Below are positions 1,823-64,000 of a stretch of 64,000 nt of DNA, piece by piece. Both the position numbers and the translations under genes were made by a program. The DNA comes from Chiloscyllium plagiosum (taxonomy: Eukaryota), in assembly GCF_004010195.1 (NCBI RefSeq), contig NC_057724.1, positions 31,944,268-32,008,267 of the forward strand, written 5' to 3'. Below the pieces are notes generated by a model. That model saw only the letters and a list, made by a program, of their open reading frames with translations. It ran no database searches and was not told where the DNA came from. Numbering within the stretch: position 1 is the stretch's first letter; the number at the start of each line of letters is the position of its first letter.

Positions 1823-2638
1823 CCAGATATATTTATCACTGGTACTAAAAAGCTGCAAATTATTTCAACTCTGGCAGAGACTGAAATAAATATATTTAAA
1901 CCCTGATTAAATGGGTTTTCACAGCTAGGTTTGGTTACGTTCACAACTGATGAGCAAATGTTCAGTTCCAGCAGGATTCTTTCCAAAAAAAAGTCAGAAT
2001 CCTACGAATTTCATATTACTTTTCCCCACTGCCTAAATTAATCTGAAGTCATCGAAGCAAACCGCAATCCTTACCATTACCCTGACAGAGATCAACAGAC
2101 TCAAAGACATACCCAGAATCTTCTGGTCCCTGTGTCTCAATGCTACACCACACTCTTCTTACATCCACACAGCCATCAAGTGAACAGCCATGACCTTGTC
2201 AGTCACATTATGCTGTAAAACTCTGTTCCAGTAAAAATAATTTCTGGATATTAAATGGATCAAGTGAACGTCAGTCCGATAAAACTGACAGACAATGATT
2301 GTAGATTGGTTTTGGAGTATGGTGACAGTACACATTCTTTATAAAAGCCTTTATTTGTTTAAGATCTTACTAAGGTGCAGAGCTGGCAGTTGGGGTTTGT
2401 GGTAGGTAGTAATCTGAGTCAGATCAAGCAGTTTGATTGTTTAAGCTGGTCATTTAAAATTAATCTAGATGAAACTACTTTTTTTTAAAAAAAGCTGTGT
2501 TTAGACAATTCATTGGGAATATATTTTACAGAAATGAAACTGAACTAGTAAAGTACTTAATCACCATGAGGGGTTTGCTGGTACCTCTCTTTCCTGCAAC
2601 CCATTCATGTCAGATTCATTTGATGATCATCGTATGAG

Positions 2639-2861
2639 CTGAAAAATGTGTTGCTGGAAAAGCACAGCAGGTCAGGCAGCGTCCAAGGAGCAGGAGAATC
2701 GACGTTTTGGGCATAAGCCCTTCTTCAGGATTCCTGAAGAAGGGCTCATGCCCGAAACGTCGATTCTCCTGTTCCTTGGATGCTGCCTGACCTGCTGCGC
2801 TTTTCCAGCAACACATTTTTCAGCTCTGATCTCCAGCCTCTGCAGTCCTCACTTTCTCCTA
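2639..2861. mobile_element. Palindromic (fold-back) Penelope-like mini-element, family N, with hammerhead motif
   Basis: 95 bp inverted arms (2636-2730 / 2732-2826, ~5 mismatches) with a ~35 nt tail on the right arm only. 17 bp TSD gatgatcatYgtatgag (2622-2638 / 2862-2878). Homologous to the 3' end of the RT/GIY-YIG elements at 54144-57269 and 45006-45633. Confidence 0.9.
2731..2765 (+). ncRNA. Minimal hammerhead ribozyme motif (sequence/structure match only; activity untested)
   Basis: CUGAAGA (2734-2740) - A - stem II GGGC/UCAU/GCCC - GAAA (2754-2757) - CGUC. The opposite-strand copy has GAAA mutated to AAAA. Confidence 0.7.
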
Positions 2862-4918: not shown

Positions 4919-5173
<255 letters not shown>

Positions 5174-7440: not shown

Positions 7441-8643
7441 TTTGGATTCAATCTTTTATAATTGCAGATATAATTAGTTACAGATATGATGTTGTTTGGA
7501 GCTTTATAGTAAAGGGTACTGTACTGCACTACAAAAGACAGCACTTCCCAGTATAGACTGTCACATGGTGTAACAGAACTCCATAATATCTTTGAAAACA
7601 CCATCACATCTGCAGCCTCTGTCACATAATTGTTTGTGGTTTTCTCACTTTTGCAATGATATGGGATTTGACTAGTTGCAGTGTGCTAGCTCACTAAACA
7701 AGTCAATTTGAAGAACGCATTAATTCTTTCCTTCCAACTACTCTGGGAAGGAAATGTGAACAGGTCGGAAATAATCAGCTTGAATAAATTATAGGAAAGC
7801 TAAAATTCCTTACAAACCAGTGAAGTGAAGTTGTTAGAATTTGAGATCTCAGGCATTTTCTTGAGTGAATTCAAAAACGTCCAATCTTTAAGATGTTGTC
7901 TGTAGTGAGGCACGATAGCCTTAGGAAATGAAAAGTTTTTAATTCTCTGATTCTAAATATTATTCTTCTGTTCATGTAAACAGACCAATTTAAATAGAGC
8001 TCTGTTGTTATACATCTTAATCCACAAAAGTGAGTTTTCTCAGCATTTAACAATTTATCTGCAATGTTCTCACTACACCAATGCAAATTTATGTTTCGTG
8101 GTACTTGTGAAATATACGAAGAATTTTAATCTTGTAGAATTTACTGAACTGAAAAGCTGCAGTTCGACCTGTAGCCTTAATGCAATAAATTGGCAGAAGT
8201 GTTAATAGTTATTACTGAAATGAAGTAGCTTGCCTTAGCTGTTTGGTTAATGTTGTTTCTCTATTACTAAAGTCAGTTAAATGAGTTCAAACATGGGATG
8301 AGAATAGTTAGGTGCTGTTTTTGACTGGCTTAGATTCAATGGGCCGAAGAGTCTTTTTCCGTAATGAAGATCTTTGTTAATCTAAATTTAAAAAGTAGAG
8401 GAAAAACCTCCTTATCTCACCTGAACCAAAAGCTTGGAGATGGGAGGTAAAACCAGATCGTGACTCCATATTCACAAGCACCAATATCCTGATTTACATT
8501 GTTCTTGTACTTGTTTCAGTATTGATGGTCTCATTGTCTCCAACTTCCCGGATATAATGGAAGCCTGTCACTCAAAACTCCTCTTTCACTGTTAATTCAT
8601 TGTATACAATTTTGATAAAAATGTTTGAATAATATTTTTTCGG

Positions 8644-8732
8644 GGAGAAAGTGAGGACTGCAGATGCTGGAGATCAGTCGAGGAGAAAGTGAGGATGGAC
8701 CTGCTGCGCTTTTCCAGCAACACATTTTCAGC
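8644..8732. mobile_element. Internally deleted family-N Penelope mini-element
   Basis: Keeps both outer ends of the palindromic element (ggagaaagtgaggactgcagatgctggagatcag ... gacctgctgcgcttttccagcaacacattttcagc). 14 bp TSD taatattttttcgg (8630-8643 / 8733-8746). Confidence 0.85.
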
Positions 8733-9584
8733 TAATATTTTTTCGGATTGTATTGAATTTTTTGAGTATTTTTAACTTCAGTCTGGCTGGTGGGTTGTTA
8801 AAATGGAGCAGGTTAAACCCCAGGCTGTCACAGTTTTTAAAAAGCATGATTTTTTAGGTCAATGAAGAGCTGGCTGCCCCCAGCACCTTCTATGATTTGG
8901 ACTCCTAATACCACAGTCTGAACATTGAAGAGAGTAGCAGCAGTCCCTTCGCAACTATAAAGCAAGTCTAAAGATCAAACAGACTTTTCAAGTTAACTTA
9001 GAACTTGCCTTGGGACCAAAATGAAAAGAATGATGGAAATCGGCAAAAGAGCCAGTTTTGGAACTTTTTCTATTCTATGCTTTCAACCAGTTTTCAGTGT
9101 TTCTTGTAGGCTCCTAAACCAGGCCTGAGCTACCTTGATATTAAAGTTTGATATCTGACCAGATTCCTAGCATACTCCACTGACTATTTCTCATCAGTGA
9201 CTTACTCCAAGTTATGAATCTATGTTTTTTTGAAGGAATTGAAGAGCCTTGGGCAACCAAGTGTTTTCCTGTAGCTCCACAGATTGCAAATGGCTCCCGC
9301 TACTCACAGCTGTTATCACCACCATCACCATGACTACAATCCTTTTGCTCCTCACAGCACTCTCCCCTCCAATAAACCATTGCCAATGTTCAGTTATTCA
9401 AATCTTCAGTTATCCAAAGTAATTTGGTCATAGAAAACCAATTTAATTAGAACTAAAAGAAAGCTTCTTCAACCTTTCAAAAAATACTTAGCATTGCAAA
9501 AAGACTAGAAGTTGCGCTCATCAGAACTAGCACACAGGAAACCTACTTGAACAAAGAAGCAGTGTTTCATACAATATGAGCGTG

Positions 9585-9793
9585 GAGAAAGTGAGGTCTG
9601 CAGATGCTGGAGATCAGAGCTGGAAATGTGTTGCTGGAAAAGCGCAGCAGGTCAGGCAGCATCCAGGGAACAGGAGAATCGACGTTTCGGGCATAAGCCC
9701 TTCCTGAAGAAGGGCTTATGCCCGAAACGTCGATTCTCCTGTTCCCTGGATGCTGCCTGACCTGTTGCGCTTTTCCAGCAACACATTTCCAGC
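9585..9793. mobile_element. Palindromic family-N Penelope mini-element with an intact hammerhead motif on + (9704-9731)
   Basis: 86 bp inverted arms (9618-9703 / 9709-9794, 1 mismatch) with the tail on the left arm only. Perfect 15 bp TSD tacaatatgagcgtg (9570-9584 / 9794-9808). Confidence 0.92.
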
Positions 9794-10039
9794 TACAATA
9801 TGAGCGTGCTGATCAGTTAGGCCATCATTACTGTGGAGATGCAGCAAGAAGGGTTCACTGTCGATCTTAATCCTCAGGACAGAGAGATTCTGATTGGTCA
9901 GTGTGTTATCATGGAGATGCAGCAGAGATTGACTGTCTTCATGACCCCTTTTGTCTTTTGGAAAAAGTGTAATGTATCTATAAATTCCTGTTCTCTCCAA
10001 AAAAAAGGGTCCTCTATTTTAAATATGTGGGTTTTAGCA

Positions 10040-10192
10040 CACACAAATGCATTATAACTTACATAAGTACATTGGGGCAATAGAACAGAATGCAGAATAT
10101 AGTGTACAGCTACAGAGAAAGTGCAGAGAAAGATCAACTCTAATATGAGAGGTCTGTTCAAAAGCCTGATAGCGTGAAGAAGCTGTTCTTGA
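10040..10192 (-). mobile_element. Probable Rex1/Babar-type LINE 3' fragment
   Basis: gaggtctgttcaaaagcctgatagc..gaagaagctgttcttgag resembles the antisense 3' end of fish/shark Rex1-like LINEs (recognised by eye only). Confidence 0.4.
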
Positions 10193-10510: not shown

Positions 10511-13500
10511 TAGTTAAGAACCTGTGATTTCTCAACTGATACATCAAGGAAAGGGAGAACATTAGTTTACTCCATTTCAGTGGGAAATTTGAGCTCAGGA
10601 TGGAGTTTTGTTTTAAAACCTAAAACCAATTCAAAGTCACCCTGAGGGATGGAATGCTTTATTTTTCTAATCAACCTGTTTAGATATTATTACACAACTC
10701 TGAATGCTTGTGGGACTTGGATCCTGACTTCCTGATGCACAACCACTGTGTTACAAGGACGCACTTCACAAAAAAATAGTTATATGGTTTCCATTAGACA
10801 AACTTTTAAAACTTGGATATTTATTGCTTATTAACGGTCCAGCTTACCTTGTTCATTTTTCAAACTGAACTCAAATTCCACCATCTGCCATATTAGGACT
10901 TGAACCTATGTCATCAGGTCATTGACCTGGGAGTCTGAATTTTGAGTCCAGTGGCATTACCACTATGCCATAAACTCCCCATGGAATTTATTAAAGCTAT
11001 GTGTCAAAGTTTTTGCAACCGTGAATTGAAATATTGCAAACGTGTTATTTACATACTGGAGATTTGCAAGGGCGAAGAGATTAGTGATCTTTCCTTCGAA
11101 GATGCATTTCCCATGGTAACCAACAAAGATAGTAACAGACCTGGACCAAGGAGGAATCCCATGGTGATGCCATTTATTTGGGTCTCCATGATGTCATTGA
11201 TACCGAACGAAAATAGTTTCAACAGTACATTAATTGAACTGGGAGGTTCCACAGTAACATTTGCTGAGGGCAATAACGATGAACTTCAGTCCAAACGTTT
11301 TCTATTGTTTTCATACAAATAATGTATTAATTTTTAAAATTGATTAATATCTCACTGCTTCTTTAGCATTCCACAGGAGATAATTGAAAACAGACGTGGA
11401 CTGAATAATACCCAGCTATATAATAATGAACCAGAAGCTGGAGAAGAGAAACCAAGGGGTTGCAATTATGCAAAGATTGTGTAGAAATAAAAGTGAGTTT
11501 TATTAGCTCTGTCATGTTCTGTGGCCTTTGTTTTGCACTTTTGCAGCACAATGAGCAATATTTGCCAGGTAATATCACTTTGTACAGTCTATTCTCTGCA
11601 ACCCTGATGAGCAATGATAATTACAATAGCTACATTTTTCAGTACAATTTTTAATTTGTTCGACAGGTTAAAGTCCCAAGTCTTCCCCAATTTTGTATGC
11701 AAATCAATGTTAACATTGCATTTAGCAGAATTAGACAATAAAAATACTCCAGTGGTCGTGAAACATTTTGAACAATCTGAGCTCATAATGGGGCTATAGA
11801 AATGCAAGTCATTTATTTCTTTACATTACTCCATTAATTTAAAGCAAAAATGTTCACCAAACAGTCATGCCATATCGGCTCATAATTTTGAGGAAATGGC
11901 AAGGTTCCCATGTTATCTAAAATGGATGTCACGTTCCTCCTCCAAGGAGGTGGGAGTGAAGAGTGGGACATGTTTGACACAAATGCAGTTCACAATATGT
12001 TTAAAGCTGTAACTGCCTTCACCCATAAGTAATTTTCACAATCTGGCTTTCTGAAACGCAACTTATGAGCTTTACAAATTTAAGGAAAAAAAGCCTAAAT
12101 ATACCTCCGTTCTTTGGTAGCCTTTTGGGATTGGCTGCACTTTCTGCCACCCTGAAGTATGTGTACTAGCAGGGATATCCCTCAAATATATTTTAATAGA
12201 GTGATAAATATCTGATAAGAATCTTAATCAAAGTGTAATTTGGGTCAAAAATTAATTGTTAAAGTATAACTTCTTAAAGGCTTTAAACCTTGGCTTAAAA
12301 GTGTACACATACATGTTTGGAAATAATTGGCTGCTCAGTCGGCAGTCATCACTGGAAAGTTAATATCAGCAAATATGTAATTTTGATTGATTAATAGTAA
12401 ATTTATATATAAAAGGTTGATAAGGTGTGTGGAATTATCAAATTGTCTTTTGAAATCCCTGTCCTTTGAAACAAAAACATGCTGCCATGTATCTCCGTGG
12501 GTGGAAAAAGGTGCCTTTTAGTTTCTGAAGCTGTTTGTTGACATATGCCTGAGGGCTATCCATGTTCATACTACTTGACTGCTTCTATAACCTATATTCA
12601 CAATGAACGCTCTGTAAGTTCCATATGTGATTAACTAGAAATGAAGGGGTTAACTGTCTTATGATGTGGGGCTATAAGTACAAATGTTTGTCAGTATACA
12701 ACTTGAACTAACTAAAACGAAACAGGAAGTTGAAGCTTTACGACTAGCCCCAATCAGAACCTGGACACAAAAAACAGACTTGAACAGGGACGTCGCTTTA
12801 TACAGCATGAGAGGAGGCTGCAACGTCCCACTAGCAACGTTCAACTAGCCTGGTCTAGGAAATGTGTATCCACCATTAGATTTTGCTATTGGAAATCTTT
12901 CATTGTATAATTTGAATGAGAGTACTAAGAGTTGCACAAATCAGTTTAACATCAGCTGAGTTTCTCGTGTGATATATTTGCATATGCTAGAAACTACATG
13001 CATAAGTACATAGATGTAGGCAAAAGGAATTGGACATGTATTACTTCTTTGTTTCTTTAAAAAAAAGGATAGCCAATCTTTGCATCCCCTTTGCAATGCC
13101 CCAACCAATTCGAATTTATCTGCCTACTCTGAGAAAATAAGATTGATGGTTGACTGGCGAAAGTGTTTGAAAAATAGTTAAACATATCAGTGAGGTTTCT
13201 AAAAATATTGTGAAGTCTCTGGTGCGGAAGGGTATTTCATTTTACCTTATGCCTCCCGATATGGGCATGGAACGAATTGGCATGGAGAATGTAAGAGCAC
13301 AATGTAGATAGAGGGCATGGAATTTTAAGGGATCATGGGGTTTGTGGATCTTGGGATGGCATGAATTGCAGCCAGGTTAGCAGATGAACCATTGGAGATT
13401 GCGCAGAAGGGCATGGATTAGTATGGAGGGTGGGAGGGGATATGGGTAGTTGAAAGGGGAGAGCTTTTTAATTTTCATCACTGGGACCATGTTAATATTG

Positions 13501-19464: not shown

Positions 19465-19654
19465 CCGGAAGCGGCAGGGACAGACCACTATAAACACTGG
19501 AGGAAACATCAAAGAAGCGCTTTGCAGGAGGCTCCCAAGCACTGATGATGTCGCCTAGCCAGGGGACGAAACGTTTGCAACAAAAACTTCCAGCTCGGCG
19601 AACAGAACCACAACAACGAGCACCCGAGCTACAAATCTTCGCACAAACTTTGAA
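19465..19654 (+). mobile_element. Penelope 3' end/pLTR, family P2, with hammerhead motif at 19539-19578; nested in an older minus-strand Penelope remnant (~19395-19830)
   Basis: GCA-CUGAUGA-U-GUCgCC/UAGCCA/GGgGAC-GAAA-CGUU-UGC (3 bp stem I). Tail gagctacaaatcttc is shared with 32082 and 63857. Confidence 0.75.
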
Positions 19655-19989
19655 CAGAACATAAATGTTAGGATGAGACCAAGTTGTTTTTTTGAAATGA
19701 CAAGCAACTGGATAGTTGGGGTCATCCTGTGTACAGAGCGAAGTCGTTTTAAAATATGGTCACCCAACGTGAGTTTGATCTTGCTAATGTAAAGGAGACT
19801 TTATTGCATACCGTAAATACAACAGATTTGATTGAAAAGTTTGTGTTGCACATTGAGGAGGGAAGAGCTGGGACCGGAAGTGATCTGCCTTCTACGACTG
19901 CATGGGAAGGTGCCATGGTGGGTAACAGAATATTAGGAGTGAAGGAAAATGATCTAGGGTAATCCACCACATCATGATAATGAGCCTCC

Positions 19990-27249: not shown

Positions 27250-27900
27250 TATAGAACATTACAGTGCAGTACAGGCCCTTCGGCCCTCGATGTTGCGCTG
27301 ACCTGTGAAACTATGCTGAAATCCATCTAAATTACCCCATTCCATTATCAATCATATGTTTATCTAATGACTATTCAAATGCCCTTAAAGTTGGAGTGTC
27401 TACTATTGTTGCAGGCAGGGCATTCCAGACCCCTATTACTCTGAGTAAAGAAACTATCTCTCACATCTGTCCTATTTCTGTCCTTCCTATAATGCAGTGA
27501 CCAGAACTGGGAGTGCGCCTACACCAGAGTTTTGTTCAGCAGCAACATGACCTCATGGTTCTCAAACTCACTCCCTCTACCAATAATAGCTAACACACCA
27601 TATGCCTGGATGTACGTTTGCTCATTGAGCTGGAAGGTTTATTTCCAGGCGTTTCACCACTCTACTAGGTAACATCTTAAGTGGGGTTCAGAAGAAGCAC
27701 GGCTGATAAGTCCTGCTTTCTATTTTTGTTTGGGTTTCTTTGGGTTGGTGATGTCATTTCCTGTGGTGAAGTCACTTCCTGTTCTTTTTCTTGGGGGTGG
27801 TAAATGGGGTCTAACTCTATGTATTTGTTGGGTTGCACCCTCATCCAGGTCATTTATAAAGATGACAAACAGCAGTGGCCCCAAAACACTTTTTTGTGGT
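27250..27900 (-). mobile_element. CR1 fragment inserted in the Gypsy relic and itself split by a Penelope fragment
   Basis: Tail atagaacattacagtgcagtacaggcccttcggccc and RT piece VPQKSVLGPLLFVIFINDLDEG (27900-27835). Confidence 0.8.
27607..27830 (-). mobile_element. Penelope family-P1 3' fragment with decayed hammerhead
   Basis: Collinear with 61045-61250 and 32121-32203; the core reads CUUAAGA instead of CUGAAGA. Confidence 0.8.
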
Positions 27901-28280: not shown

Positions 28281-28637
28281 TGCCATAAATGACGATTTCT
28301 GCCTTTGGAAATTGTGGCAAAATTCCTTCAATGGTGGGCATGGGGTAGTGAGAGAATTTCAGAGCTTTAGTTGTATTGTTTTTGATTAATACTCTTAGCT
28401 GTCCAGGTTATTTCAATGCTACTACACTGTCAATCCATTCTGTAGTTGTCTCTTTCTTGATTACTCCCTTCTTTTCCAGCTCTTCTATCTTGCCTTTCAA
28501 ACTGACTTTGAGGGCAGCTGAAACTTTCTTAAGCAGTTGCTGAATTGCCTTTGCATTCTCATCAATGTTGAAATGATATATGCCAGGGGACCATCCTATA
28601 CCCATAAACATATTGCTGTACTACTCTTGGATCTGAT

Positions 28638-28761
28638 TAAAACAAAAACTGCAAATGCTGGAATCTAAAGTAGACTGAAAGGAGGCTGGAAAAACACAGC
28701 AAGCCAGGCAGTATCAGAAGTGCAGAAGTCGACGTTTCAGGTGTAACCCTTCTTCAGGACT
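28638..28761 (-). mobile_element. Solo Penelope pLTR (family N variant) with hammerhead motif at 28727-28761
   Basis: Reverse complement AGUC-CUGAAGA-A-GGGU/UAC/ACCU-GAAA-CGUC-GACU: 4 bp stem I and a different stem II sequence. Confidence 0.75.
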
Positions 28762-29611: not shown

Positions 29612-29830
29612 CATGATTTGGAGGTGCCAGTGTTGGATTGGGTGCAGAAAATGTGTTGCTGGAAAAGCGCAGCAGGTTAGGCAACATCCAAGGAGCAGGA
29701 GAATCGACGTTTCAGGCATGAGCCCTTCTTCAGGAATGGATTGGATGCACGAAGTTAAAAATCAACACCAGGTTATAGTCCAACAGGTTATTTGGAAGCA
29801 CTAGCTTTCGGAGCGCCGCACCTACAGCAG
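29612..29830 (-). mobile_element. Penelope-type pLTR (another family, decayed hammerhead ..ggcgctccgaaagct) hosting a family-N insert
   Basis: atgatttggaggtgccagtgttggattgg..aagttaaaaatcaacaccaggttatagtccaacagg..ctagctttcggagc. The GAAAG half of the core is kept; the CUGA half is lost. Confidence 0.55.
29647..29736 (-). mobile_element. Solo, tail-less family-N arm with hammerhead motif
   Basis: 13 bp TSD tggattggRtgca (29634-29646 / 29737-29749). Reverse complement starts ttcctgaagaagggctcatgcctgaaacgtcg. Confidence 0.85.
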
Positions 29831-32081: not shown

Positions 32082-32307
32082 AGTGAGTTTTGAGATGATT
32101 TGTAGCTCAGGTTGAGGTTTTGGATGTAGGTTTGCCCGCTGAGCGGGAAGGTTTATTTCCAGACGTTTCGTCACCGTACTAGGTAACATCTTCAGTGGGC
32201 CTCCAGATGAAGCACTTCGCCCAGAGGCCCACTGAAGATGTTATCTAGTGGGGTGACGAAACGTCCGGAAATGAACCTTCCAGCTCAGAGAGCAAATCTA
32301 CATCCAG
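32082..32307. mobile_element. Palindromic Penelope mini-element, family P1, with hammerhead motifs on both strands
   Basis: 83 bp inverted arms (32121-32203 / 32224-32306) with a 39 nt tail on the left arm only. Perfect 13 bp TSD atttgggagtggt (32069-32081 / 32308-32320). Confidence 0.9.
32159..32198 (-). ncRNA. Minimal hammerhead ribozyme motif, family P1 (intact; activity untested)
   Basis: CCA-CUGAAGA-U-GUUACC/UAGUAC/GGUGAC-GAAA-CGUC-UGG: 3 bp stem I, 6 bp stem II. A sister motif lies on + at 32229-32268. Confidence 0.75.
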
Positions 32308-32363
32308 ATTTGGGAGTGGTGCCATAGGACTGAAGAGTCACAAATGTTACAATTTTGCTTGTA

Positions 32364-44034: not shown

Positions 44035-45633
44035 GCTGACCCACCCTCAACACCTGGCACCTTCCCTTGCTGCCGAAAGAGGTGTAAAATGTGCACCCAT
44101 ACCTCTACCCACACAGGAGGTTAGTGAGTAAAATTAGGGTGCATGGTATTGGGGGCAAAGTACTAGATTGGATTGAAAATTGGTTGGCTAATAGGAAACA
44201 AAGGGTAGTGATAAACGGCTCCATTTCGGAATGGCAGGCAGTGACCAGTGGGGTACCGCAGGGATCCGTGCTGGGACCACAGCTTTTTACAATATATGTT
44301 AATGATATAGAAGATGGTATCAGCAATAACATTAGCAAATTTGCTGATGATACAAAGCTGGGTGGCAGGGTGAAAAGTGAGGGTGATGTTAGGAGATTAC
44401 AGGGTGACCTGGACAAGTTAGGTGAGTGGACAGATGCATGGCAGATGCAGTTTAATATGGATAAATGTAGTCTCCAAATTTGAGGAAATACATTCTGGCT
44501 ATTGAGGGAGTGCAGCGTAGGTTCACGAGGTCAATTCCTGGAATGGCAGGATTACCTTACACTGAAAGACTGAAGCGACTGGGCTTGTATACCCTTGAGT
44601 TTCGAAGATTGAGAGGGGATCTGATTGAGACGTGTAAGATTATGAAAGGATTGGACACTCTGGCAGTAGGAAACATTTTCCACTGATGGGTGAGTGCCGA
44701 ATCAGAGGACACAGCTTAAAAATACGGTGTAGACCATTTAGGACAGAGCTCAGGAGAATCTTCTTCACCCAGAGAGTGGTGGCTGTGTGGAATGCTCTGC
44801 CCGAGTGGGCAGTGGAGGCCCAGTCTCTGGATTCATTTAAGAAAGAGTTGGATAGAGCTCTCAAAGATAGTGGAATCAAGGGTTATGGAGATAAGGCAGG
44901 AACAGGATACTGATTAGGAATGGTCAGCCATGATTATATTGAATGGCGGTGCAGGCTCGAAGGGCTGAATGGCCTACTCCTGCATCTATTGTCTATTGTC
45001 TACCCTCACCTTCATCCAAGGCCTCAAAGGACCTTTTAAAAACAAGCATAGATTTTCCTGCACATCTACCCACCTCATCTACTTTCCCTGTTACTGTCTG
45101 AGGTCTCCTGTACATCAGGGAGACCGAATGCCAACTCTCACAATGTTTCAGGGAACATCTCTGGGACACACACAACAAACAACTCCACTGCCCTGTGGCC
45201 AACCACTTCAACTTCCCCTCCCAGTTCCCCAAGGACATGCAAGTCCTGGGCTGCCTCCACGGCCAAATTCAAGCCACCTGACAACATCTTCCACCTCGGG
45301 ACCTAACGACCACATGGCATCAACATTGAATTCACTAAATTCCAAATCTCCTCTCCCCCCACTTCTTCCCAGATCCAACCCTCCAACTCAGCCTCTTGAC
45401 CTGTCCACCTTCCTTCCCACCTATCCGTTCCATCCTCCCCACCAATCCATCACAATTACCTCTCTCCTGCATCTACCTATCGCCTTCCCAGCTACCTTCC
45501 CCTAGCCCCACCCCCACCCCCAATCAGCCCGCTTCCCTCTTCACATTCCTGATGAAGGGCTTATGCCTGAAATGTCAACTATCCCTGCTCCTTGGATGCT
45601 GCCTGACCTGCTGTGCTTTTCCAGCGCCACACT
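44035..45633 (+). mobile_element. Penelope (Neptune-like) 3' fragment with Cys motif, GIY-YIG remnant and pLTR (decayed hammerhead 45549-45576), split by a CR1
   Basis: PGTFPCCRKRCKMCTHTS (44050-44105) continues as TLTFIQGLKGPF..HLIY..LLYIRET after 45005, collinear with the 54 kb element. Motif ctgatgaagggcttatgcctgaaatgtc. Confidence 0.85.
44111..44998 (+). mobile_element. 5'-truncated, internally deleted CR1 LINE inserted in the Penelope fragment
   Basis: VTSGVPQGSVLGPQLFTIYVNDI..SKFADDTKLG; (TCTATTG)n tail; 7 bp duplication tctaccc (44104-44110 / 44999-45005). Confidence 0.95.
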
Positions 45634-45636
45634 CTT

Positions 45637-45855
45637 ATCAGTGCAGCTGTCTGGCTTATTTCCTTTGACGAGGATGCTAATCTGAGACCTTTACTATCTG
45701 ATTGGATGAACGTTACTGATCCTTTGGCATTGGTCAAAGAAGAACAGCAAGTTCTCTGGATCCAAGCCAACATTTCTCCCTCGAGCAGAACAAAACTGCT
45801 CATTCATCTTATTGTTTTCTGTGGTCTTCTTGCTGTGCACAAAATACAATTGTTT
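45637..45855 (+). mobile_element. Degenerate DeuSINE (SacSINE1-like) core; other remnants at ~11750-11815 (+) and 60760-61044/63898-63970 (-)
   Basis: gatcctttggcatt..aagaagaacag..gttctc..gccaacatttctccctc..cttgctgtgcacaaa matches the Deu-domain pattern as I recall it. Confidence 0.6.
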
Positions 45856-51729: not shown

Positions 51730-53563
51730 TTAGGCGGCCTTTGGGTGGAGCCGCAGAAAATGGGGGAGATACTAAATGCGTATTTTGCATCAGTATTGAC
51801 TGTGGAAAAGGATATCGAAGATATAGACTGTAATGAAATAGATGGTGACATCTTGCAAAATGTCCAGATTACAGAGGAGGAAGTGCTGGATGTCTTGAAA
51901 TGCATAAAAGGGGATAAATCCCCAGGACCTGATCAGGTGTACCATGGAACTCTGTGGGAAGCTAGGGAAGTGATTGCTGGGCCTCTTGCTGAGATATTTG
52001 CATCATCAATAGACACAGGTAAGGTGCCGGAAGACTAGAGGTTGACAAACGTGGTGCCACTGTTTAAGAAGGGCGGTAAGGACAAGCCAGGGAACTATAG
52101 ACCAGTGAGCCTGATGTCAGTGGTGGGCAAGTTGTTGGAGGGAATCCTGAGGGACAGGATGTACATGTATTTGGAAAGGCAAGGACTGATTAGGGATAGT
52201 CAACATGGTTTTGTGTATGGGAAATCATGTCTCACAAACTTGATTGAGTTTTTTGAAGAAGTAACAAAGAAGATTGATGAGGGTAGAGCAGTAGATGTGA
52301 TCAATATGGACTTCAGTAAGGCGTTCAACAAGGTTCGAACATGGGAGACTGATTAGCAAGGTTACATCTCATAGAATACAGGGAGAACTAGCTATTTGGG
52401 ATACAGAACTGGCTCAAAGGTAGAAGATAGAGGATGGTGGTGGAGGGTTGTTTTTCAGACTGGAGGCCTGTGACCAGTGGAGTGCCACAAGGATTGGTGC
52501 TGGGTCCTCTACTTTTTGTCATTTACATAAATGTTTTGGATGCGAACATAAGAGGTACACTTAGGACGTTTGCAGATGACACCAAAATTGGAGGTGTAGT
52601 GAACAGTGAAGAGGGTTACCTCAGTTTACAACAGGATCTTGACCAGATGTGCCAATGGGCTGAGAAGTAGCAGATGGAGTTTAATTCAGATAAATGCGAG
52701 GTGCTACATTTTGGGAAAGCAAATCTTAGCAGGACTTAAACACTTAAGGTAAGGTCCGAGGGAGTGTTGCTGAACAAAGAGACCTTGGAGTGCAGATTCA
52801 TCGCTCCTTGAAAGTGGAGTCGCAGGTAGATAGGATAGTGAAGAAGGCGTTTGGTATGCTTTCCTTTATTGGTCAGAGTATTGAGTACAGGAGTTGGGAG
52901 GCCATGTTGCGGCTGTACAGAACATTGGTTAGACCACTGTTGTAATATTGCGTGCAATTCTGGTCTCCTTCCTATCGGAAAGATGTGAAACTTGAAAGGG
53001 TTCAGAAAAGATTTACAAGGATTAGATTAGATTAGATTAGATTAGATTATTTACAGTGTGGAAACAGGCCCTTCGGCCCAACAAGTCCACACCGCCCCGC
53101 GATGTTGCCAGGGTTGGAGGATTTGAGTTATAGGGAGAGGCTGAACAGGCTGGGACTGTTTTCCCTGGAGCGTTGAAGGCTGAGGGGTGACCGTAGAGGT
53201 TTACAAAATTATGAGGGGCATGGATAGGATAAATAGACAAAGTCTTTTCCCTGGGGTTGGGCAGTCCAGAACTAGAGGGCATAGGTTTAGGGTGAGAGGG
53301 GAAAGATATAAAAGAGACCTAAGAGGCAACTTTGTTCAAGCAGAGGGTGGTACGTGTATGGAATGAGCTTCCAGAGGAAGTAGTGGATGCTGGTACAATT
53401 GCAACATTTAAGAGGCATTTGGATGGGTATATGAATAGGAAGTGTTTGGAAGGATATGGGCCGGGTGCTGGCAGGTGGGACTAGATTGGGTTGGGATATC
53501 TGGTCGGCATGGACGAGTTGGACCGAAGGGTCTGTTTCCATGCTGTACATGTCTATGACTATG
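51730..53563 (+). mobile_element. 5'-truncated CR1 LINE (complete RT domain and 3' UTR) with stops and frameshifts
   Basis: KSPGPDQV..PED*RLTNVVPLFKKGGKDKPGNYRPVSL..QHGF..SCLTNL..DFSKAF..GVPQG..FADDTKIG; tail ctatgactat. Confidence 0.96.
53023..53100 (-). mobile_element. 5'-truncated HE1 SINE 3' end with (AATCT)n tail, inserted antisense into the CR1
   Basis: (attag)5 + tttacagtgtggaaacaggcccttcggcccaacaagtccacaccg is the reverse complement of 47638-47696. The host reads acaaggat|...|gatgttgcc. Confidence 0.9.
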
Positions 53564-54245
53564 GATATGATGGCATTGGCAAAATATGTGGCAGAATTGG
53601 ACAAGAATTCCAGTAAGGCCTATCTCGACATCAGGAGCAATTCTTTGCACCTTCCTCCAAGATTCATAGATATATATGGAAAATCTTTTGCTAAACAATA
53701 GTAAGCAGCCTATTAAAGAAGATGATTGCTCATTAACCACCTCACTAACAGCACTTCACACCTCATTAATATGTAGCTTCCTCGCTTACCAAATGTGCCA
53801 AACAAGAATCTCGAGATTAAAGTCAGAGCAATACCTGGTGCTTATCTCCATGTTGGACACCCGGAACCAATGACTCAAGGCATGCTCCAAGTGTACTAGG
53901 CACGTTTTTTAAAATTCAATTACAGGATATGATGGCCACTGGTCAGACCAGTATTAATTGCCCATCCCTATTTGCCCAGAGGTTAGTTGAATGTTAACCA
54001 CATTGTTGTGGGTCTAGAGACACATATAAGCCAGACCAGGTAAGGATAGCAGTTCCCTTCTCTGAAGAACATTAGTGAACGAGATGGATTTTTCTCAAAA
54101 TCCACAGACATTAGCTTCCAACATGTGCCTATTTCTAAGAATCAACAAGGTAAAAACAATGACTGCAGATGCTGGAAACCAGATTCTGGATCAATGATGC
54201 TGGAAGAGCACAGCAGTTCAGGCAGCATTGAGGAGCTTCAGCAAA

Positions 54246-54280
54246 ATCGACGTTTCGGGCAAAAGCCCTTCATCAGGAAT
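54246..54280 (-). ncRNA. Minimal hammerhead ribozyme motif in the 3' pLTR of the Penelope element
   Basis: AUUC-CUGAUGA-A-GGGC/UUUU/GCCC-GAAA-CGUC-GAU; all core nucleotides present. Confidence 0.75.
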
Positions 54281-54320
54281 AAAGGCCGAGAGGCTGAAGC
54301 GTGGAGAGATAAGCTAGAGG

Positions 54321-54471
54321 NNNNNNNNNNNNNNNNNNNNNNNNNNNNNNNNNNNNNNNNNNNNNNNNNNNNNNNNNNNNNNNNNNNNNNNNNNNNNNNN
54401 NNNNNNNNNNNNNNNNNNNNNNNNNNNNNNNNNNNNNNNNNNNNNNNNNNNNNNNNNNNNNNNNNNNNNNN
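54321..54471. other. Assembly gap (151 N)
   Basis: Run of N. Confidence 1.
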
Positions 54472-55862
54472 GAAGGTGAGGCGTTCTTCCTCCAGGCGTC
54501 TGGTGGTGAGGGAGCGGCGGTGAAGGAGGCCCAGGACCTCCATATCCTCGGCAGAGTGGGAGGGGGAGTTGAAATGTTGGGCCACGGGGCGGATTGGTGA
54601 TTGGTGCAGGTGTCTCGGAGAATTTCCCTAAAGCGCTCTGCTAGGAGGCGCCCAGTCTCCCCAATGTAGAGGAGACCGCATCGGGAGCAACGGATACAAT
54701 AGATGATATTAGTGGATGTGCAGGTAAAACTTTGATGGATATGGAAGGCTCCTTTAGGGCCTTGGATAGAGGTGAGGGAGGAGGTGTGGGCACAGGTTTT
54801 ACAGTTCCTGCGGTGGCAGGGGAAAGTGCCAGGAGGTGAGGGTGGGTCGTAGGGGGTCGTGGACCTGACCAGGTAGTCACGGAGGGAACGGTCTTGGCGG
54901 AAAGGGGTGGGGAGAGAAATATATCCCTGGTGATGGGGTCTTTTTGGAGGTGGCGGAAATGTCGGCGGATGATTTGGTTTATGCGGAGGTTTGTAGGGTG
55001 GAAGGTGAACACCAGGGGCGTTCTGTCCTTGTTACAGTTGGAGGGGTGGGGTCTGAGGGCGGAGGTGCGGGATGTGGACGAGATGCGTTGGAGGGCACCT
55101 TTAACCACGTGGGATGTGAAATTGTGGTCTCTAAAGAAGGAGGCCATCTGGTGTGTTCTGTGGTGGAACTGGTCCTCCTGGGAGCAAATACGGTGGAGGC
55201 GGAGGAATTGGGAATACAGGATGGCATTTTTGCAAGAGATAGAGTGGAAAGAGGTGTAATCCAGGTAGCTGTGGGAATCGGTGAGTTTGTAATAAATGTC
55301 AGTGTCAAGTCGGTCTTCACTAATGGAGATGGAGAGGTCCAGGAAGGGGAGGGAGGTGTCAGAGATGGTCCAGGTAAATTTAAGGTCAGGGTGGAATGTG
55401 TTGGTGAAGTTGATGAATTGCTCAACCTCCTCGCGGGAGCATGAGGTGGCGCCAATGCAGTCATCAATGTAGCGGAGGAAGAGGTGGGGAGTGGTGCCGG
55501 TGTAATTACGGAAGATCAACTGTTCTACGTAGCCAACAAAGAGACAGGCATAGCTGGGGCCCATACGTGTGCCCATGGCTACCCCTTTGGTCTGGAGGAA
55601 GTGGGAGGATTCAAAGGAGAAATTGTTAAGGGTGAGGACCAGTTCGGCCAAACGAATGAGAGTGTCGGTGGAAGTGTACTGTTGAGGACGTTTGGAGAGC
55701 AAAAAACTGAGGGCTTGGAGGCCCTGGTCAAGGCGGATGGAGGTGTAGAGGGATTGGATATCCATGGTGAAGATGAGGCGTTGGGGGCCAGGGAAACGGA
55801 AGTCTTGGAGGAGGTGGAGTGTGTGGGTGGTGTCTCAAATGTATGTGGGGAGTTCCTGGACT
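54472..55862 (-). pseudogene. Penelope ORF (RT thumb/palm and GIY-YIG), frameshifted; N-terminal part at 56665-57198
   Basis: ORF track 54641-55765 (RT) and 54238-54585 (endonuclease end, AQHFNSPSH); premature stop at ~56876. Confidence 0.88.
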
Positions 55863-56664
55863 NNNNNNNNNNNNNNNNNNNNNNNNNNNNNNNNNNNNNN
55901 NNNNNNNNNNNNNNNNNNNNNNNNNNNNNNNNNNNNNNNNNNNNNNNNNNNNNNNNNNNNNNNNNNNNNNNNNNNNNNNNNNNNNNNNNNNNNNNNNNNN
56001 NNNNNNNNNNNNNNNNNNNNNNNNNNNNNNNNNNNNNNNNNNNNNNNNNNNNNNNNNNNNNNNNNNNNNNNNNNNNNNNNNNNNNNNNNNNNNNNNNNNN
56101 NNNNNNNNNNNNNNNNNNNNNNNNNNNNNNNNNNNNNNNNNNNNNNNNNNNNNNNNNNNNNNNNNNNNNNNNNNNNNNNNNNNNNNNNNNNNNNNNNNNN
56201 NNNNNNNNNNNNNNNNNNNNNNNNNNNNNNNNNNNNNNNNNNNNNNNNNNNNNNNNNNNNNNNNNNNNNNNNNNNNNNNNNNNNNNNNNNNNNNNNNNNN
56301 NNNNNNNNNNNNNNNNNNNNNNNNNNNNNNNNNNNNNNNNNNNNNNNNNNNNNNNNNNNNNNNNNNNNNNNNNNNNNNNNNNNNNNNNNNNNNNNNNNNN
56401 NNNNNNNNNNNNNNNNNNNNNNNNNNNNNNNNNNNNNNNNNNNNNNNNNNNNNNNNNNNNNNNNNNNNNNNNNNNNNNNNNNNNNNNNNNNNNNNNNNNN
56501 NNNNNNNNNNNNNNNNNNNNNNNNNNNNNNNNNNNNNNNNNNNNNNNNNNNNNNNNNNNNNNNNNNNNNNNNNNNNNNNNNNNNNNNNNNNNNNNNNNNN
56601 NNNNNNNNNNNNNNNNNNNNNNNNNNNNNNNNNNNNNNNNNNNNNNNNNNNNNNNNNNNNNNNN
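55863..56664. other. Assembly gap (802 N)
   Basis: Run of N. Confidence 1.
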
Positions 56665-57354
56665 CGGAAGTGGTGGCAGACACAGCAGTCGAGGTGGCAG
56701 AAGTCACTGAGCATGTGGCATCGGCAATGATGTGAGGGCCGGAAGTGGCTGTGGGAGTGGCCATGATGGGATCGGAAGTGACATCATCAATCAGCGTGGG
56801 GGTGGCAGCTGCATCAGCCACATGGCTAATGGCGTTTCCGAGGCCAGGGGAATCTTCTGGAATGTTTGAGGAGCGCTAGTTATGGAGGTGGGTGGATAAA
56901 AGTTTGTTGTACTTATAGTTTTTGATGTTTAAGATGGAATTGAAATACTGTTTGTTGAGAGTATGGATTCTCCTGAGGATGTAGTACCGAGTGGGTCCTT
57001 TGCAATTCTGAGAGAGTGTGGCCCTCAGCTGAGGCAGGGCAGACTGTAGAGAGGTTAGGTGCCGGCGCATTGCTGTGAGCGTGGAGAGGAGGATCTTGAA
57101 GGAGAACTGTTGCTGGTGTTTTTGAATCTGTAGTCTGTACTGCTTGTCCTGTTCGGGTCCGAACGCTGCCGGTTTAAAGGTGGTCCGGAGTTCGTGTGCG
57201 ATGAGTTGGTTATGGAGGCAGGCACTGAGGAAGCAGATGTGGCTGTGGTTACGGAGGCAGGCACTATTTCTATTTCTAAGAATCCCCTAGTGCACATCCA
57301 GTCCACTGTTACCTTCTGCACTTCAAAACTCTACCTCAGGCTGCACCGGCAAAT

Positions 57355-59420: not shown

Positions 59421-61044
59421 CCATTAGTTCTGGGATATTCTGGCAGTGACAAGCTGGTCTGGGAAGAGCAGCTGGTAAGATGATGTTCGAATCAAAAGAG
59501 TGACACATGGAAGCGTGGTAGGTAGTTGATGAGGTCAGTTTTGGTAAGATTTGATGAGAGATGTTGCTTGGCATTGTGGTGGAAAATCCCTCCAAAAAAA
59601 TACTCAACACTGAACTAAAGATAACATGCAATTCAATCCTACATCTCACTTCATGAAGGTAAATAAATTTCCTTGGTGTTTTAAGTACTTTGTTAGTGAG
59701 CAAATTTGGGTGAAAACCAAATAGCCAGGGTAAGAACAGATGGTAGTTTGGGAACTGTATTTAAAAATGACTTGTTTTCATTATTGTATGAATTATTATA
59801 AGATGATTGATAAGATTATTTGTATGTTCATGTCAAAAAGAAAAAAATATAGGAACCAGCAGGTCAGCTAACATCTGTGGCAAGCATGGATTAGTTTATA
59901 GTTTGGGTGTGGACTCTTCAGAATGAACAAATATGACGTAGATCAGTGTGTTATAATGGAAAAGCATATATTTACAAAATTGGTCATTATTAAAATTTAT
60001 TTTGGTTTTGAATTTCCATGAACATTCACAAGAATTCAAACCCTTTGCATTTTTCCATATCTGAAAATAGAGTAGTGCTGATGTAAATTTCATAATTCAT
60101 CAAATATTTGTCTATTCTACCTGAAGGAGAACATAGTGAGAGGATCAATGTCATGGTGACATTTTGTTTAACTATAAGTGGAGCCTCCTGTTTTTTATGT
60201 TTGAGATTTATTACCCAGATGTAGTTATGGAGATAATGGTTAACTTTAGCAGTGAGCTCAGCTGTCACTTTAATGAATAGATGTTTTCACAGAGACTACT
60301 TTGTACAATAATTGTCCCATTCATAAACATTTACATCAGCATAGCAGCATTCTGATAGTGCTATTTTAGCTTGTATTGCGTGCAAAGAAATACATTTAGA
60401 AACCTTTTGGAGCTATAAGAAAGGTACTTTTTCAAATAACCTTTCTGTCACCTGTTTTTGTATGATTGAACTTTGAGAACATTTAAAATGTTGAGTTTAC
60501 TGAAGTATGGTGATATCGTACTTAGTCACGTATAAATCTTGTAATCAACAATGGTGCATTTGTAAAGCTACCATTTCTAAATAGATTGCTTTCTCTTGAA
60601 TTTATAAAATCTTACCTTTATCAGATCCTACTCAAATTCTGCAAATTAAAATTCAAGTTCTTATTTCACTAAAATCATCAGAGGGCCAAGGAATTGCGAC
60701 ATTTTGCTGTTCAAACCAGGTCTGTCACCTAGCAATTATAGAAAGAACTTCCATTTTTAATAAGTAATACTTTTCACAACCATAATATACCTCAAAGTAT
60801 CCTGCAATCAACCCCAGTCACTACTGTAATGTTGCTCCCATACATTGCATTGATAGCAACACCCAATTAATCTGTTTCTGATTGTTGTTGAGGGGGCACA
60901 AGGGGTGAAGCACCTTTTTTATGAATAATATTATTGTGGGGAGTGGATTTGATAAGGTATACATCTAAACAACTGCAGTAGGATGCAGGGCGTCTTTTTA
61001 ATTGCTCAAAGATAGGACTGCACTTATGATAGTGAAGCACTCCT

Positions 61045-63883
61045 GGATGTAAGTTTGCTCGCTGAGCTGGAAGGTTCGTTTTCAGACGTTTCATCACTAT
61101 ACTAGGTAACATCTTCAATGAGCCTCCGGTGAAGCACTGGTGTTATGTCCATGTTCTATTTGTGTGTTTAGGTTTCCTTAGGGTGTTGATGTCATTTCCT
61201 AAACTTTTTCTCAGAGGGTGTTAGATGGGGTCCAAATCGATGTGTTTGTTGATAGAGTTCTGGTTGGAATGCCATGCTGCTCGGAATTCTCACGTGTGTC
61301 TCTGTTTGGCATATATTAGGATGGATGTTTTGTTCCAGTCAAAGCGGTGTCCTTCCTCATCTGTTTGTAAGGATACTAGCGATAGTGGATCATGTCTTTT
61401 TGTGGCTAGTTGATGTTCATGTGTTCTGTTGGCTATTTTCTGCCTGTTTGTCCAATGTAGTATTTGTTTCAGTTCTTGCAAAGTATTTTGTAAACTATGT
61501 TTGTTCTGCTTGTTATCTGTATAGGGTCTTTCAAGTTCATTAGCTGCTGTTTTAATGTGTTGGCGGGTTTTTGAGCTACAATGATGCCAAGAGGTCTGAG
61601 TAGTCTGGCAGTCATTTCTGAGATGTCTTTGATGTAGGGGAGAATGGCTAACGTTTCTGGATGTGTTTTGTCTGCCTGTTTGGGGTTGTTGCTGAGAAAT
61701 CAGTGGACTGTGTTCATTCCTGATGAAGGGCTTTTGCCCGAAACGTTGATTTTACTGCTCCTCGGATGCTGCCTGAACTGCTGTGCTCTTCCAGCACCAC
61801 TCATCCAGAATCTGGTTTCCAGCATCTGCAGTCATTGTTTTTACCCTGTGTTCATTAGGTATCCATTCTTTTTGAATACACTGTATAGGTGATTTTCCTC
61901 TGCTCTGCAAAGTTCCTCTCTACTGCAGTGTGTGGTGGCTCATTGGAATAATGTTCTGATGCAGCTTCGTTTGTGGATGTTGGGATGATAACTCCCGCAG
62001 TTCAGCATTTGTTCCATATATGGTGTTTTCCTGTAGACGCTGGTTTAAAGTCCTCAATTTGGATGTTTGCTCTACTGTGACATCTAGGAATGGCAGTTTG
62101 TTGCTGTTTTCCTCCTCTTTAGTGAATTTTATGCCATTAAGGGTATTATTGATGGTCTAGAAGGTTTCCTCTAAATTGTTTCATTAGTGATGACAAAGTT
62201 TGGGTTGGATGGTTGGCATAGCTTTTTTTTTGAGTCTTTGCACTACTGCCTCTGCTAAGAACCCAGATATCGGTGATCCTATGGTGTTCTGTTGGTTTGT
62301 CTGTAGGTTTTGTTGTTGAAAGTGAAGTGGGTGGTAAGGCATAGGTCAACTAGCTTGACAATGTGTCCTTGCTGATGACATTGGTGGTGTCTGGTGTATG
62401 TGTCTTTGGTTCTTCTAATAGTGTAGTCAGTGTTTCATTTCACCAGTTTGATGTTGATGGATGTGAACAGGGCTGTTGTGTCCAAGGCGACCTTTTCATC
62501 CTCTTTTATCTTGGTGTCTTTGATCTTCAGGAATTCTTGGTTGGAGTGAATGGAGTGACATGAATCTTCTACTAAGTTTTTTAGTCTTTGGTGCAGTTCC
62601 TTGATTAATCTGTACATTGGTGTTACAGGTAGCAAGACTATAGATCTGAGGGTGACTCCTGGTTTGTGAATTTTGGGTAATCCGTAGGAGCGTGGTATGT
62701 TGGATCCGTCTGGTTTCATTTTTTGCTAGTTTGGCTTGTTTAATTCTCCAGATTTCTGGAGTTTCTTGAGTAAGGCTGTGATTCGATTCTCTAGTCATGG
62801 GGTCGGGTCTATCACCATCTGTTGGTAAGTGTCGGCATCTGCCAGCAGAGTGTTCACTTTCTCAATGTAGTCTGTTTGGTTTAAAATGATTGACTGTAAG
62901 TCATCCTTTGTCTGCAGGTAGGATAACAATGTTTTTATCTTTTTTGATTCCTTCTAGTGCTTTGTTTTCTTGGGTATCAAGTGTTTTCTTCTTTTTTCCT
63001 GCTTAATGTCGGTACAACTATCTGTCTGATGGTTTGCTGAGGTTTTTCTGTGAGTTCTTGTATTTCAGAGTTGTTTCTAATGCTGCTAAGAAATCTTTCT
63101 TGTTCACATCCCGAAGGTAATAATTTAATCCTCTTACTAAAATGGCTTTTTCAGTGTCTGTCAGGTAAGTTTTTTTAAAATCCATGCTTCTGTATTGTCT
63201 GTGTTGTTACTTTCTGTGAGTTTGTTTAATTTTTTCATTTTCTGTGTTTGCCACTGTCTTATGTCCATGGCTCGTTCTACTGTTCATTCATGGTTTGTCA
63301 CATTAGTAAGTAAAGTTTTTTGGTGCAAAATTCCCCAGTTGTATTTATGGAGTCTGTTGTGGGTATCATTAATCATTTCTCTAAGCATTCTGTGGCCATT
63401 GTGTTCTGCTATTCTTTGGCTAGTGGAGTGTTAAGGGGAGGTTTGTATTTAAGCCATTTAGGTCGTACCTGTTTCCTTAGGTATTTGTGCAGGATGTACA
63501 GCTATTTGCTGGTGGCACTCTGTCAGATGGCATTGGTTTCCCATCTTCGGGCCAGTTTTAGCATTTTAGGACAACACATTCATTCTCGGACATGCCAAAC
63601 AGAGACACGCATGAGAATTCCTAGAAGCATGACCTTCCAACCAGAACTCTATCAACCGGACCCCATCTACCACCCTCTGAGGGGGAAAAAAAAATGGGAA
63701 ATGATATCACCAACCCAAGAAAACCTAAATACATAAATAGAAAGTTGGACATATCACCAACGCTTCACCGCTTCATGTTACCCAGTATGGTAACAAAACA
63801 TCTGAAAATAAACCTTCTAGCTCAGCGAGCAAACTTACATTCAGAACAGCAATCTGAGCTACAAATCTTCTCAAAACTGACTA
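61045..63883 (-). mobile_element. Degenerate Penelope/Poseidon-like element (family P1) with an inverted copy of its 3' end at ~63580-63883
   Basis: YGLPKIHKPGVTLRSIV, DTTALFTSI, LPFLDV, YIGQTGR..HEHQLATKRHD. The left end is tail-less and the right inverted arm carries the tail. 14 bp TSD agtgaWgcactcct (61031-61044 / 63884-63897), splitting a DeuSINE. Confidence 0.92.
61719..61845 (+). mobile_element. Solo family-N pLTR (same subfamily as the 54 kb element) inserted in the P1 element
   Basis: 11 bp TSD ctgtgttcatt (61708-61718 / 61846-61856). Begins cctgatgaagggcttttgcccgaaacgttg and is near-identical to the reverse complement of 54149-54277. Confidence 0.92.
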
Positions 63884-64000
63884 AGTGATGCACTCCTTTC
63901 AGTAATGCACTAAAACACTGACCCACTTAGTATCTTAATGTTCAAGTGAAGCTTTAAGCCATAATTGTAGTATATCTGCATAAGGATATGTTAATAGTGA

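Follow-up and report, generated by a model that had tools for sequence, protein, structure and literature searches.

Endonuclease-bearing (EN+) Penelope-like elements are known to insert with an inverted pseudo-long terminal repeat (pLTR), a tail on one side only and a target-site duplication (TSD) (PMC3846280, PMC8557442, PMC2377424 and PMC8969392). We analyzed 64,000 nucleotides of Chiloscyllium plagiosum contig NC_057724.1 (positions 31,944,268 to 32,008,267, forward strand; hereafter the window) in which very short insertions, most of them with a minimal hammerhead ribozyme, carry such pLTR sequence. These mini-elements (minis) occur as solo units or as fold-backs of two head-to-head arms. 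Their structure is real, abundant and of a known kind; they come from two ordinary Penelope clades and are not a new non-autonomous ribozyme element. Very likely they are by-products of Neptune- and Poseidon-type elements.

The EN+ Penelope-like insertion units share with the copies described here head-to-head inverted pLTRs, a 30- to 40-bp tail at one end, variable TSDs and partial tandems, and the window copy at 61045-63883 is a textbook form of them. In contrast, the commonest form here lacks an open reading frame (ORF) between its arms, stops sharply at its 5′ end and reaches a density of about 49 pairs per Mb. The Anolis element Poseidon_Ac (PMC11167929) resembles our copies in having two start sites that bracket the tail, in the cutting and extension of both target strands and, for the Poseidon copies, in an ORF start at hammerhead stem II; the main text of that study does not contain fold-back minis, a pairing of one site per strand or genomic run-off at a transcript start. 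Minimal type I hammerheads of Penelope-like elements (PMC4209133) have the same core boxes, unpaired base before stem II and palindromic one-pair helix III, and are likewise mostly single dispersed motifs that also form opposite-strand pairs, but those pairs lie about 100 to 700 bp apart, whereas ours, which are predicted from sequence, abut. Non-LTR retrozymes (PMC7229834; bioRxiv 10.64898/2026.07.22.740005) are also short, non-coding, hammerhead-bearing and related to pLTRs, with long TSDs and common monomers. They form head-to-tail arrays with circular RNA, whereas the minis are solos and head-to-head pairs that have no lineage of their own.

The way in which inverted pLTRs, tails and new pLTRs are built is an open mechanism that copy statistics make testable. 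Published explanations for the inversion are self-priming or endonuclease resolution (PMC3846280, PMC8557442, PMC2377424). An antisense template was invoked for rotifer elements (PMC3846280), no obvious mechanism for pLTR regeneration was seen in another study (PMC2377424), and the in vitro Anolis work left the later steps unvalidated (PMC11167929). The inverted-pLTR-plus-tail structure is known, and the run-off and twin-priming reading given below was not found in the literature searched. That search returned no description of these minis, or of twin priming or run-off for Penelope elements; Repbase, Dfam, most subscription papers and supplements, which may hold them, were outside its scope.

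Parent families and genomic abundance

Minis of family A match the 3′ end of a long copy at 54144-57269 (-), which has a Pfam RVT_1 match (E 1.8e-6), a weak GIY-YIG match and, upstream of the GIY-YIG motif, the linker CHRRNCKTC (CX4CxxC). A CX2-5CxxC motif in the linker between reverse transcriptase (RT) and endonuclease is the mark of the Neptune clade, with a reduced form in Nematis (PMC8557442). Family A is assigned as Neptune-type by this linker motif, of which Nematis shares the reduced form. Minis of family B match the copy at 61045-63883, where no linker zinc finger was seen by eye in the broken frames. The family B ATG lies in pLTR sequence at the start of hammerhead stem II, and the ORF of Anolis Poseidon_Ac begins at stem II as well (PMC11167929). 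From the absent linker motif and the place of the ATG, family B is assigned as Penelope/Poseidon-type. The marks of EN+ Penelope-like elements are present: one ORF that encodes RT and, at its C-terminal end, a GIY-YIG endonuclease, a hammerhead pLTR, a 30- to 40-bp tail, an inverted pLTR and a variable TSD. The sequence of the minis is identical to Penelope pLTRs and shared with the long copies. The Penelope-derived origin proposed in an earlier note on the window is right.

Genomic frequencies were taken from an unbiased sample of 140 stretches of 10 kb at round coordinates on contigs C1-C38 (1,342,915 non-N bases, or 1.34 Mb); labels such as L001 or L054 denote individual loci outside the window. 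Family A contributed 203 events (151 per Mb), and 66 of these include a head-to-head pair (49 per Mb). The class is very abundant, as the note had considered possible. If the sample is typical, a very rough extrapolation gives about 5x10^5 family A events and 1.7x10^5 head-to-head pairs genome-wide. Family B contributed 30 events, which were mostly longer. The TSDs of 49 validated sample insertions measured 10 to 19 bp with a mode of 14 to 15, in agreement with the note's view of retro-insertion with long, variable TSDs. TSDs were also present in 28 of 30 Neptune fold-backs and 15 of 30 older Poseidon ones among copies found by similarity search.

Ends and lineage of the minis

In Neptune numbering, +1 is the A four bases before the hammerhead core. 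Neptune arms finish near +95 (untailed) or +130 (tailed), two fixed 3′ points about 35 nt apart. All 37 TSD-validated fold-backs of the unbiased sample are head to head and pair one tailed with one untailed arm, which would have a chance of 0.5^37 if the arms picked their sites independently. The 5′-most arm end lies at -5 to +10 in 28 of these fold-backs, further upstream in 3 and downstream in 6. These 28 stop within 16 nt of a single point just upstream of the ribozyme, at a rate about 70-fold that over +11 to +95. Thirty copies that are 98 to 100% like the window solo at 61719 (one of them the window copy itself) were classified by eye; 14 stop at -5 to +6 and 16 enter the 3′ untranslated region (UTR). 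Among single arms, 41 of 148 keep 3′ UTR upstream of +1.

Poseidon fold-backs end exactly at -18 from the core in 11 of 29 cases and within -21 to -15 in 20. This -18 position is the G of a motif, and 10 of 16 long arms have a TATA-like box 30 to 31 nt upstream of that base (first regular-expression match). Of the long Neptune arms, 34 of 37 keep TTAT(C/T)T at -30 to -32 although their UTRs have otherwise diverged, and +1 stands in an initiator-like pyrimidine-A-T-T context. The offset of the 5′ stop from the hammerhead differs by clade (-4 in Neptune and -18 in Poseidon), and these different offsets argue for a transcript start over a ribozyme boundary.

Template jumps were studied in 29 distinct loci that had been selected for a tail running on into the ORF start (ATG at +167). 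Eight were left out of the junction count (two with long unaligned gaps, three unresolved or containing N and three ending in host DNA), and 21 show a following sense segment. Over 23 junctions, the next segment starts at -11 to +10 in 14 (0 to +4 in 9), at -30 or further in 7 and downstream in 2. That next segments start near +1 in loci with an ORF start suggests that the template carried the ORF start below the tail and that the enzyme often jumped after +1.

Several loci showed arrangements of their own. In L069, L075 and L079 the sense arm meets host DNA at +199 to +254 within the ORF start, as if primed below the two usual sites. At L057 (1301-1885), two sense segments, one joined to host DNA and the other to the ORF start, share both their 3′-UTR starting position and a short microhomology. 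L054 (648-1032) and L063 (1289-1662) each contain, within a single insertion, a tandem pair of units that repeat one jump junction (pLTR plus about 65 nt of ORF start). A template that is a small circle, or that is entered repeatedly, would produce this pattern; such pairs are a possible seed of retrozyme-like arrays. One candidate for a double-tailed fold-back, L242 (C101972), was rejected because the flanking DNA on both sides is inverted too, and it is not a TSD insertion.

The note had left open whether the minis propagate independently or are stereotyped truncation products of the full element. On a tree computed from 97 columns for 35 minis and 28 long copies, the label switched between mini and long 23 times, compared with 20.9 after shuffling, and a single mini clade was rejected (p-AU 3.5e-135). 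Among 30 close relatives of the window fold-back at 2639, 20 different centre junctions were found in the 25 that could be parsed, and the one junction seen three times in the sample occurs in different subfamilies and with opposite tail polarity. Neither the clade of its own nor the shared junctions of a family like a short interspersed element (SINE) was found, and in place of retrozyme head-to-tail arrays, solos and head-to-head pairs dominate, with short tandems in a few selected loci such as L054. Since the minis interleave with long copies and their centres vary, an independent non-autonomous class is not borne out; that minis never form a cluster apart from long copies is the outcome named in the note as refuting independent propagation. 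The truncation-product option is supported, the units being fixed by two RT start sites and a 5′ stop rather than by the hammerhead cut.

The two arms of a fold-back share subfamily sites (88.5% within versus 82.2% between fold-backs), and in young pairs the arms disagreed in 0 of 10 cases at one diagnostic site and in 0 of 11 at another. A separate RNA template for each arm was not supported in these unbiased young pairs. An asymmetry between arms at +52 (20 of 29 in L001-L030) had raised the idea of editing or of a clonal subfamily. The 11 young unbiased pairs did not show it, and a search for the variant alone recovered it from arms with and without a tail, from solos and from long copies alike, which identifies it as a selection artefact.

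The hammerhead cut site corresponds to +33. Only 6 of 130 arm ends lie at +31 to +35, next to 6 at +20 to +30 and 7 at +36 to +46, with no clear pile-up, and +33 was absent among the loose ends listed in three contig sets and one RNA run. Ribozyme-cut templates were rejected as the source of the boundary, with at most a weak signal at +33 among arm ends. This result is in line with the in vitro dispensability of ribozyme cleavage for the Anolis Poseidon enzyme (PMC11167929). The RNA of a fold-back is predicted to bury the ribozyme in a hairpin (-178.4 kcal/mol, z -23.9), and the folding of solo units is not special (z between -1.7 and +0.9). The term "ribozyme units" in the note is right in that the minis bear hammerheads and overstated in that one mini has no ribozyme and fold-backs lock theirs in the hairpin. 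The motif fits a minimal type I hammerhead, with core boxes and stem II kept better than the flanks. Conservation in 35 long arms was 0.99 at 10 non-CpG core sites, 0.89 downstream and 0.79 in loop 2, which indicates that the source lineage keeps the ribozyme. The core is intact in 29 of the 48 fold-back arms that span it. The ribozyme is probably a passenger in the minis; its cut site is not a main boundary.

Proposed twin priming with run-off, and rival explanations

The ends described above are probably the product of twin target-primed reverse transcription near the 5′ end of a full-length RNA, with run-off at the likely transcript start. In L1 twin priming, both target strands prime on one RNA, and an inversion inside the TSD results. 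Here, by contrast, both priming sites would be internal, fixed and separated by 35 nt, and the two arms usually share sequence and so form a palindrome. The GIY-YIG endonuclease would make a staggered cut in the target, after which the tail-end site would be primed by one target 3′ end and the pLTR-end site by the other. Both cDNAs would extend to the RNA 5′ end, stop by run-off at the predicted transcript start and be joined head to head via short microhomologies, yielding a fold-back with one tailed arm; a single primed strand would yield a solo unit. If the enzyme jumps to another template after run-off, ORF-start or 3′-UTR sequence may be added, and a pLTR would be rebuilt in this way. The Anolis Poseidon enzyme, assayed in vitro, cleaves both strands of the target and extends them, initiates reverse transcription at a pair of internal sites that flank the tail, and requires the first 172 nt of the ORF (PMC11167929). 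The simplest reading of two start sites with both strands extended is one site per strand. The minis are probably dead on arrival, because they do not contain the ORF stretch needed for binding by the Anolis enzyme.

We lean, by a little, toward a broader claim: the roughly 10^5 fold-backs may be a fossil record of the in vivo Penelope reaction, in which there is one start site per strand, sense RNA is copied to its capped 5′ end and joining or a template jump follows. A single sense-strand mechanism, with no antisense template, would then account for tail, inverted pLTR and pLTR regeneration in two deep clades. If so, transcript starts could be mapped from DNA alone, and the predictions are that transcripts begin at +1 and -18, that each strand uses one start site and that jumps leave from the RNA 5′ end. 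The parent elements themselves are ordinary. At about 49 per Mb, the perfect-hairpin inserts resemble miniature inverted-repeat transposable elements (MITEs) or microRNA precursors and risk misannotation, as the sub-threshold microRNA matches in Rfam illustrate, and fold-backs transcribed in introns would form long double-stranded RNA.

A number of observations weigh against twin priming with run-off. The 29 pairs that have no clear TSD comprise 21 mixed ones, 8 that show no tail and 0 double-tailed ones; two of the 8 are at stretch edges and most others are old, but L183:5512 looks truly tail-less. Six of the 37 validated fold-backs end past +10, ends in old copies are BLAST ends and imprecise, and the Poseidon set was picked by likeness to the window copy. 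The Neptune motif TTAT(C/T)T is a non-canonical TATA box, and in Drosophila virilis, Penelope has an internal promoter that lacks a TATA box (PMC2377424). The RNA reads examined, about 2 in 100 of those in a single-cell polyA run, map to both strands, 94% of them continue into unlike sequence, and no site gathers many molecule ends; these reads likely reflect passenger transcription only, and +1 and -18 are putative transcript starts. With its 97 columns, the tree leaves 32 of 60 inner branches open. Finally, the centre microhomologies suit snap-back and twin priming equally well.

An identical 5′ stop and an equally interleaved tree would be expected if short RNAs arose from promoters at the 3′ ends of truncated copies, started at +1, continued past pLTR and tail into the host sequence and were copied in trans, again with no mini lineage of their own. 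Such promoters are common, given the 41 of 148 single arms that keep 3′ UTR upstream of +1, and in a rotifer pLTR sequence alone mobilised a host gene in trans (PMC3846280). However, the segments below the tail in the examined jump loci, which were selected for this, are ORF start, and the Anolis enzyme needs ORF sequence past the tail (PMC11167929), so we regard this origin as unlikely. A by-product origin in which the 5′ boundary is set not by a transcript start but by endonuclease cleavage at ATT, by halting of the polymerase at helix I or by a splice junction is quite unlikely. Neptune +1 to +3 reads ATT, the preferred cut motif of the Anolis enzyme (PMC11167929), and coincides with the 5′ strand of helix I, where a D. 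virilis intron ends (PMC4209133); yet ATT is absent from the Poseidon stop at -18, which is situated well upstream of helix I, and no AG precedes +1 in the 37 long arms shown. Snap-back self-priming, in which a single cDNA folds over and templates its own return copy, with an antisense template as a possible starting point, was proposed for rotifer elements (PMC3846280) and would explain why arms share subfamily sites, including in young pairs, and why several junctions reuse stem-II complementarity. It is improbable because the second arm must then lie inside the first. In 21 of 37 fold-backs it is the untailed arm that extends further 5′, by more than 20 nt in 7, and tail-only arms abut non-overlapping partners at window 8644, L097, L039 and Poseidon L094. 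Moreover, the untailed end is a start site mapped in vitro (PMC11167929).

An independent SINE- or retrozyme-like ribozyme family with its own masters, perhaps propagated via circular RNA, would account for the very high copy number and stereotyped size, for the conservation of the core over its flanks and for the tandemly repeated jump junctions of L054 and L063, and monomeric pLTR-related retrozymes have been described (bioRxiv 10.64898/2026.07.22.740005). It is very improbable and, for the bulk of the minis, largely refuted: the mini clade was rejected, centres vary, the thrice-seen junction spans subfamilies and tail polarities, ends do not pile up at the cut site, and the core conservation, having been measured in long copies, is that of the source lineage. 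The minis are small and have long inverted arms, as DNA-transposon MITEs do, but the probability of this explanation is negligible; it is refuted by the TSD distribution, which is not fixed and short, and the one-sided tail and the identity to Penelope pLTRs speak against it as well.

Insertions and other features of the window

Hammerhead motifs were sought with a descriptor of the core boxes plus a stem II of at least 4 pairs, and 100 dinucleotide-matched simulations served as the null. The window has 9 structured motifs (simulated mean 0.06, max 1):

2734, 9704, 32232, 45549, 61720 (+): structured hammerheads, descriptor search
54276, 32195, 29733, 28757 (-): structured hammerheads, descriptor search

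At 19542 (+) the core boxes are present with a mismatched stem II, and decayed copies lie at 2701 (-), 27645 (-) and 61084 (-). The dozen-odd loci reported in the note are thus present, 9 structured and 4 decayed or mismatched; they lie where it placed them, with the low coordinate given for minus-strand motifs. An Rfam scan of the window found no hammerhead family at E<=5, only sub-threshold microRNA look-alikes. This silence is expected because the motifs are minimal.

For TSDs, the best score across 288 random placements was 8. Eight insertions scored 10 to 15, with TSDs of 11 to 17 bp, and six of these are 89 to 226 bp long. The note's TSD lengths agree with this; its counts (seven insertions, five short) were too low. 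No TSD was found for the copies at 19542, 27605 and 45549. The insertions are as follows:

2639..2861 (+): Neptune-type fold-back, 223 bp; TSD 17 bp with 1 mismatch, 2622-2638 / 2862-2878
8644..8732 (no strand assigned): Neptune-type insert with no hammerhead, 89 bp; TSD 14 bp with 0 mismatches, 8630-8643 / 8733-8746
9585..9793 (-): Neptune-type fold-back, 209 bp; TSD 15 bp with 0 mismatches, 9570-9584 / 9794-9808
19470..19655 (+): Poseidon-type 3′ end of a second subfamily with TATA-like box, core 19542 and tail; no TSD
27605..27840 (-), right limit approximate: 5′-truncated Poseidon-type end, untailed, decayed hammerhead; no TSD
28636..28758 (-): divergent Neptune-type solo, 123 bp, core 28757; weak TSD
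29647..29736 (-): Neptune-type untailed solo, 90 bp, core 29733; TSD 13 bp with 1 mismatch, 29634-29646 / 29737-29749
32082..32307 (-): Poseidon-type fold-back, 226 bp; TSD 13 bp with 0 mismatches, 32069-32081 / 32308-32320
45000..45640 (+), left limit approximate: old 5′-truncated Neptune-type copy, untailed, with GIY-YIG remnant, 3′ UTR and hammerhead 45549; no TSD
54144..57269 (-): long Neptune-type copy; TSD 15 bp with 0 mismatches, 54129-54143 / 57270-57284
61045..63883 (-): long decayed Poseidon-type copy; TSD 14 bp with 1 mismatch, 61031-61044 / 63884-63897
61719..61845 (+): young Neptune-type tailed solo, 127 bp, hammerhead 61720; TSD 11 bp with 0 mismatches, 61708-61718 / 61846-61856

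The fold-back at 2639 consists of an untailed inverted arm (2639-2729, +4 to +94) and a tailed arm (2730-2861, +1 to +132) with an intact minimal hammerhead at 2734-2761 (+). The tailed arm of the 9585 fold-back is on the minus strand and the untailed arm, carrying hammerhead 9704, on the plus strand; the 32082 fold-back likewise has its tailed arm on minus (core 32195) and its untailed arm on plus (core 32232). The insert at 8644 has, in order, an inverted tail (+99 to +132), a second inverted tail stub and +62 to +98, with non-overlapping arms, and is of the twin-priming collision type. Since it holds only tail and distal pLTR, the note's description of the short inserts as ribozyme-containing units is true of most of them but not of this one. 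The TSD at 28636-28758 (13 bp, 2 mismatches, score 7) is below the significance line.

The "coding-size elements" of the note exist as one long copy of each type, both broken. The copy at 54144 contains an N-terminal region, RT (54641-55834), the CX4CxxC linker, a GIY-YIG region, 3′ UTR, hammerhead 54276 and tail, but its 5′ pLTR is missing and it has two N gaps. A low-complexity repetitive stretch lies within its ORF at 56665-56880 (-), beside an 802-base N gap. The Poseidon copy is untailed at 61045, has a tailed inverted pLTR at about 63700-63883 (+) and many stops and frameshifts, and hosts the nested solo at 61719.

A Pfam scan of 74 of the window's 156 non-repeat frames gave a sole match, zf-C2H2 at 4992-5173 (+), the last coding exon of a C2H2 zinc-finger gene. 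Its linker and end look KLF-type to us, and the 2639 fold-back would fall in the last intron of this gene. Repeats present in the genome sample match about 37% of the window. A further RT-encoding repeat, presumably CR1/L2-like by its motifs, is represented by several decayed copies at 15878-16625, 34719-35835, 44088-44838, 52393-53554 and elsewhere. Two tRNA-like Rfam matches, at 50074-50144 (-) with 32.8 bits and 10891-10972 (-) with 28.6 bits, are probably heads of tRNA-derived SINEs. A 112-nt inverted repeat (21146-21257 / 22456-22567) is 94% complementary, with 1198 nt between its copies.

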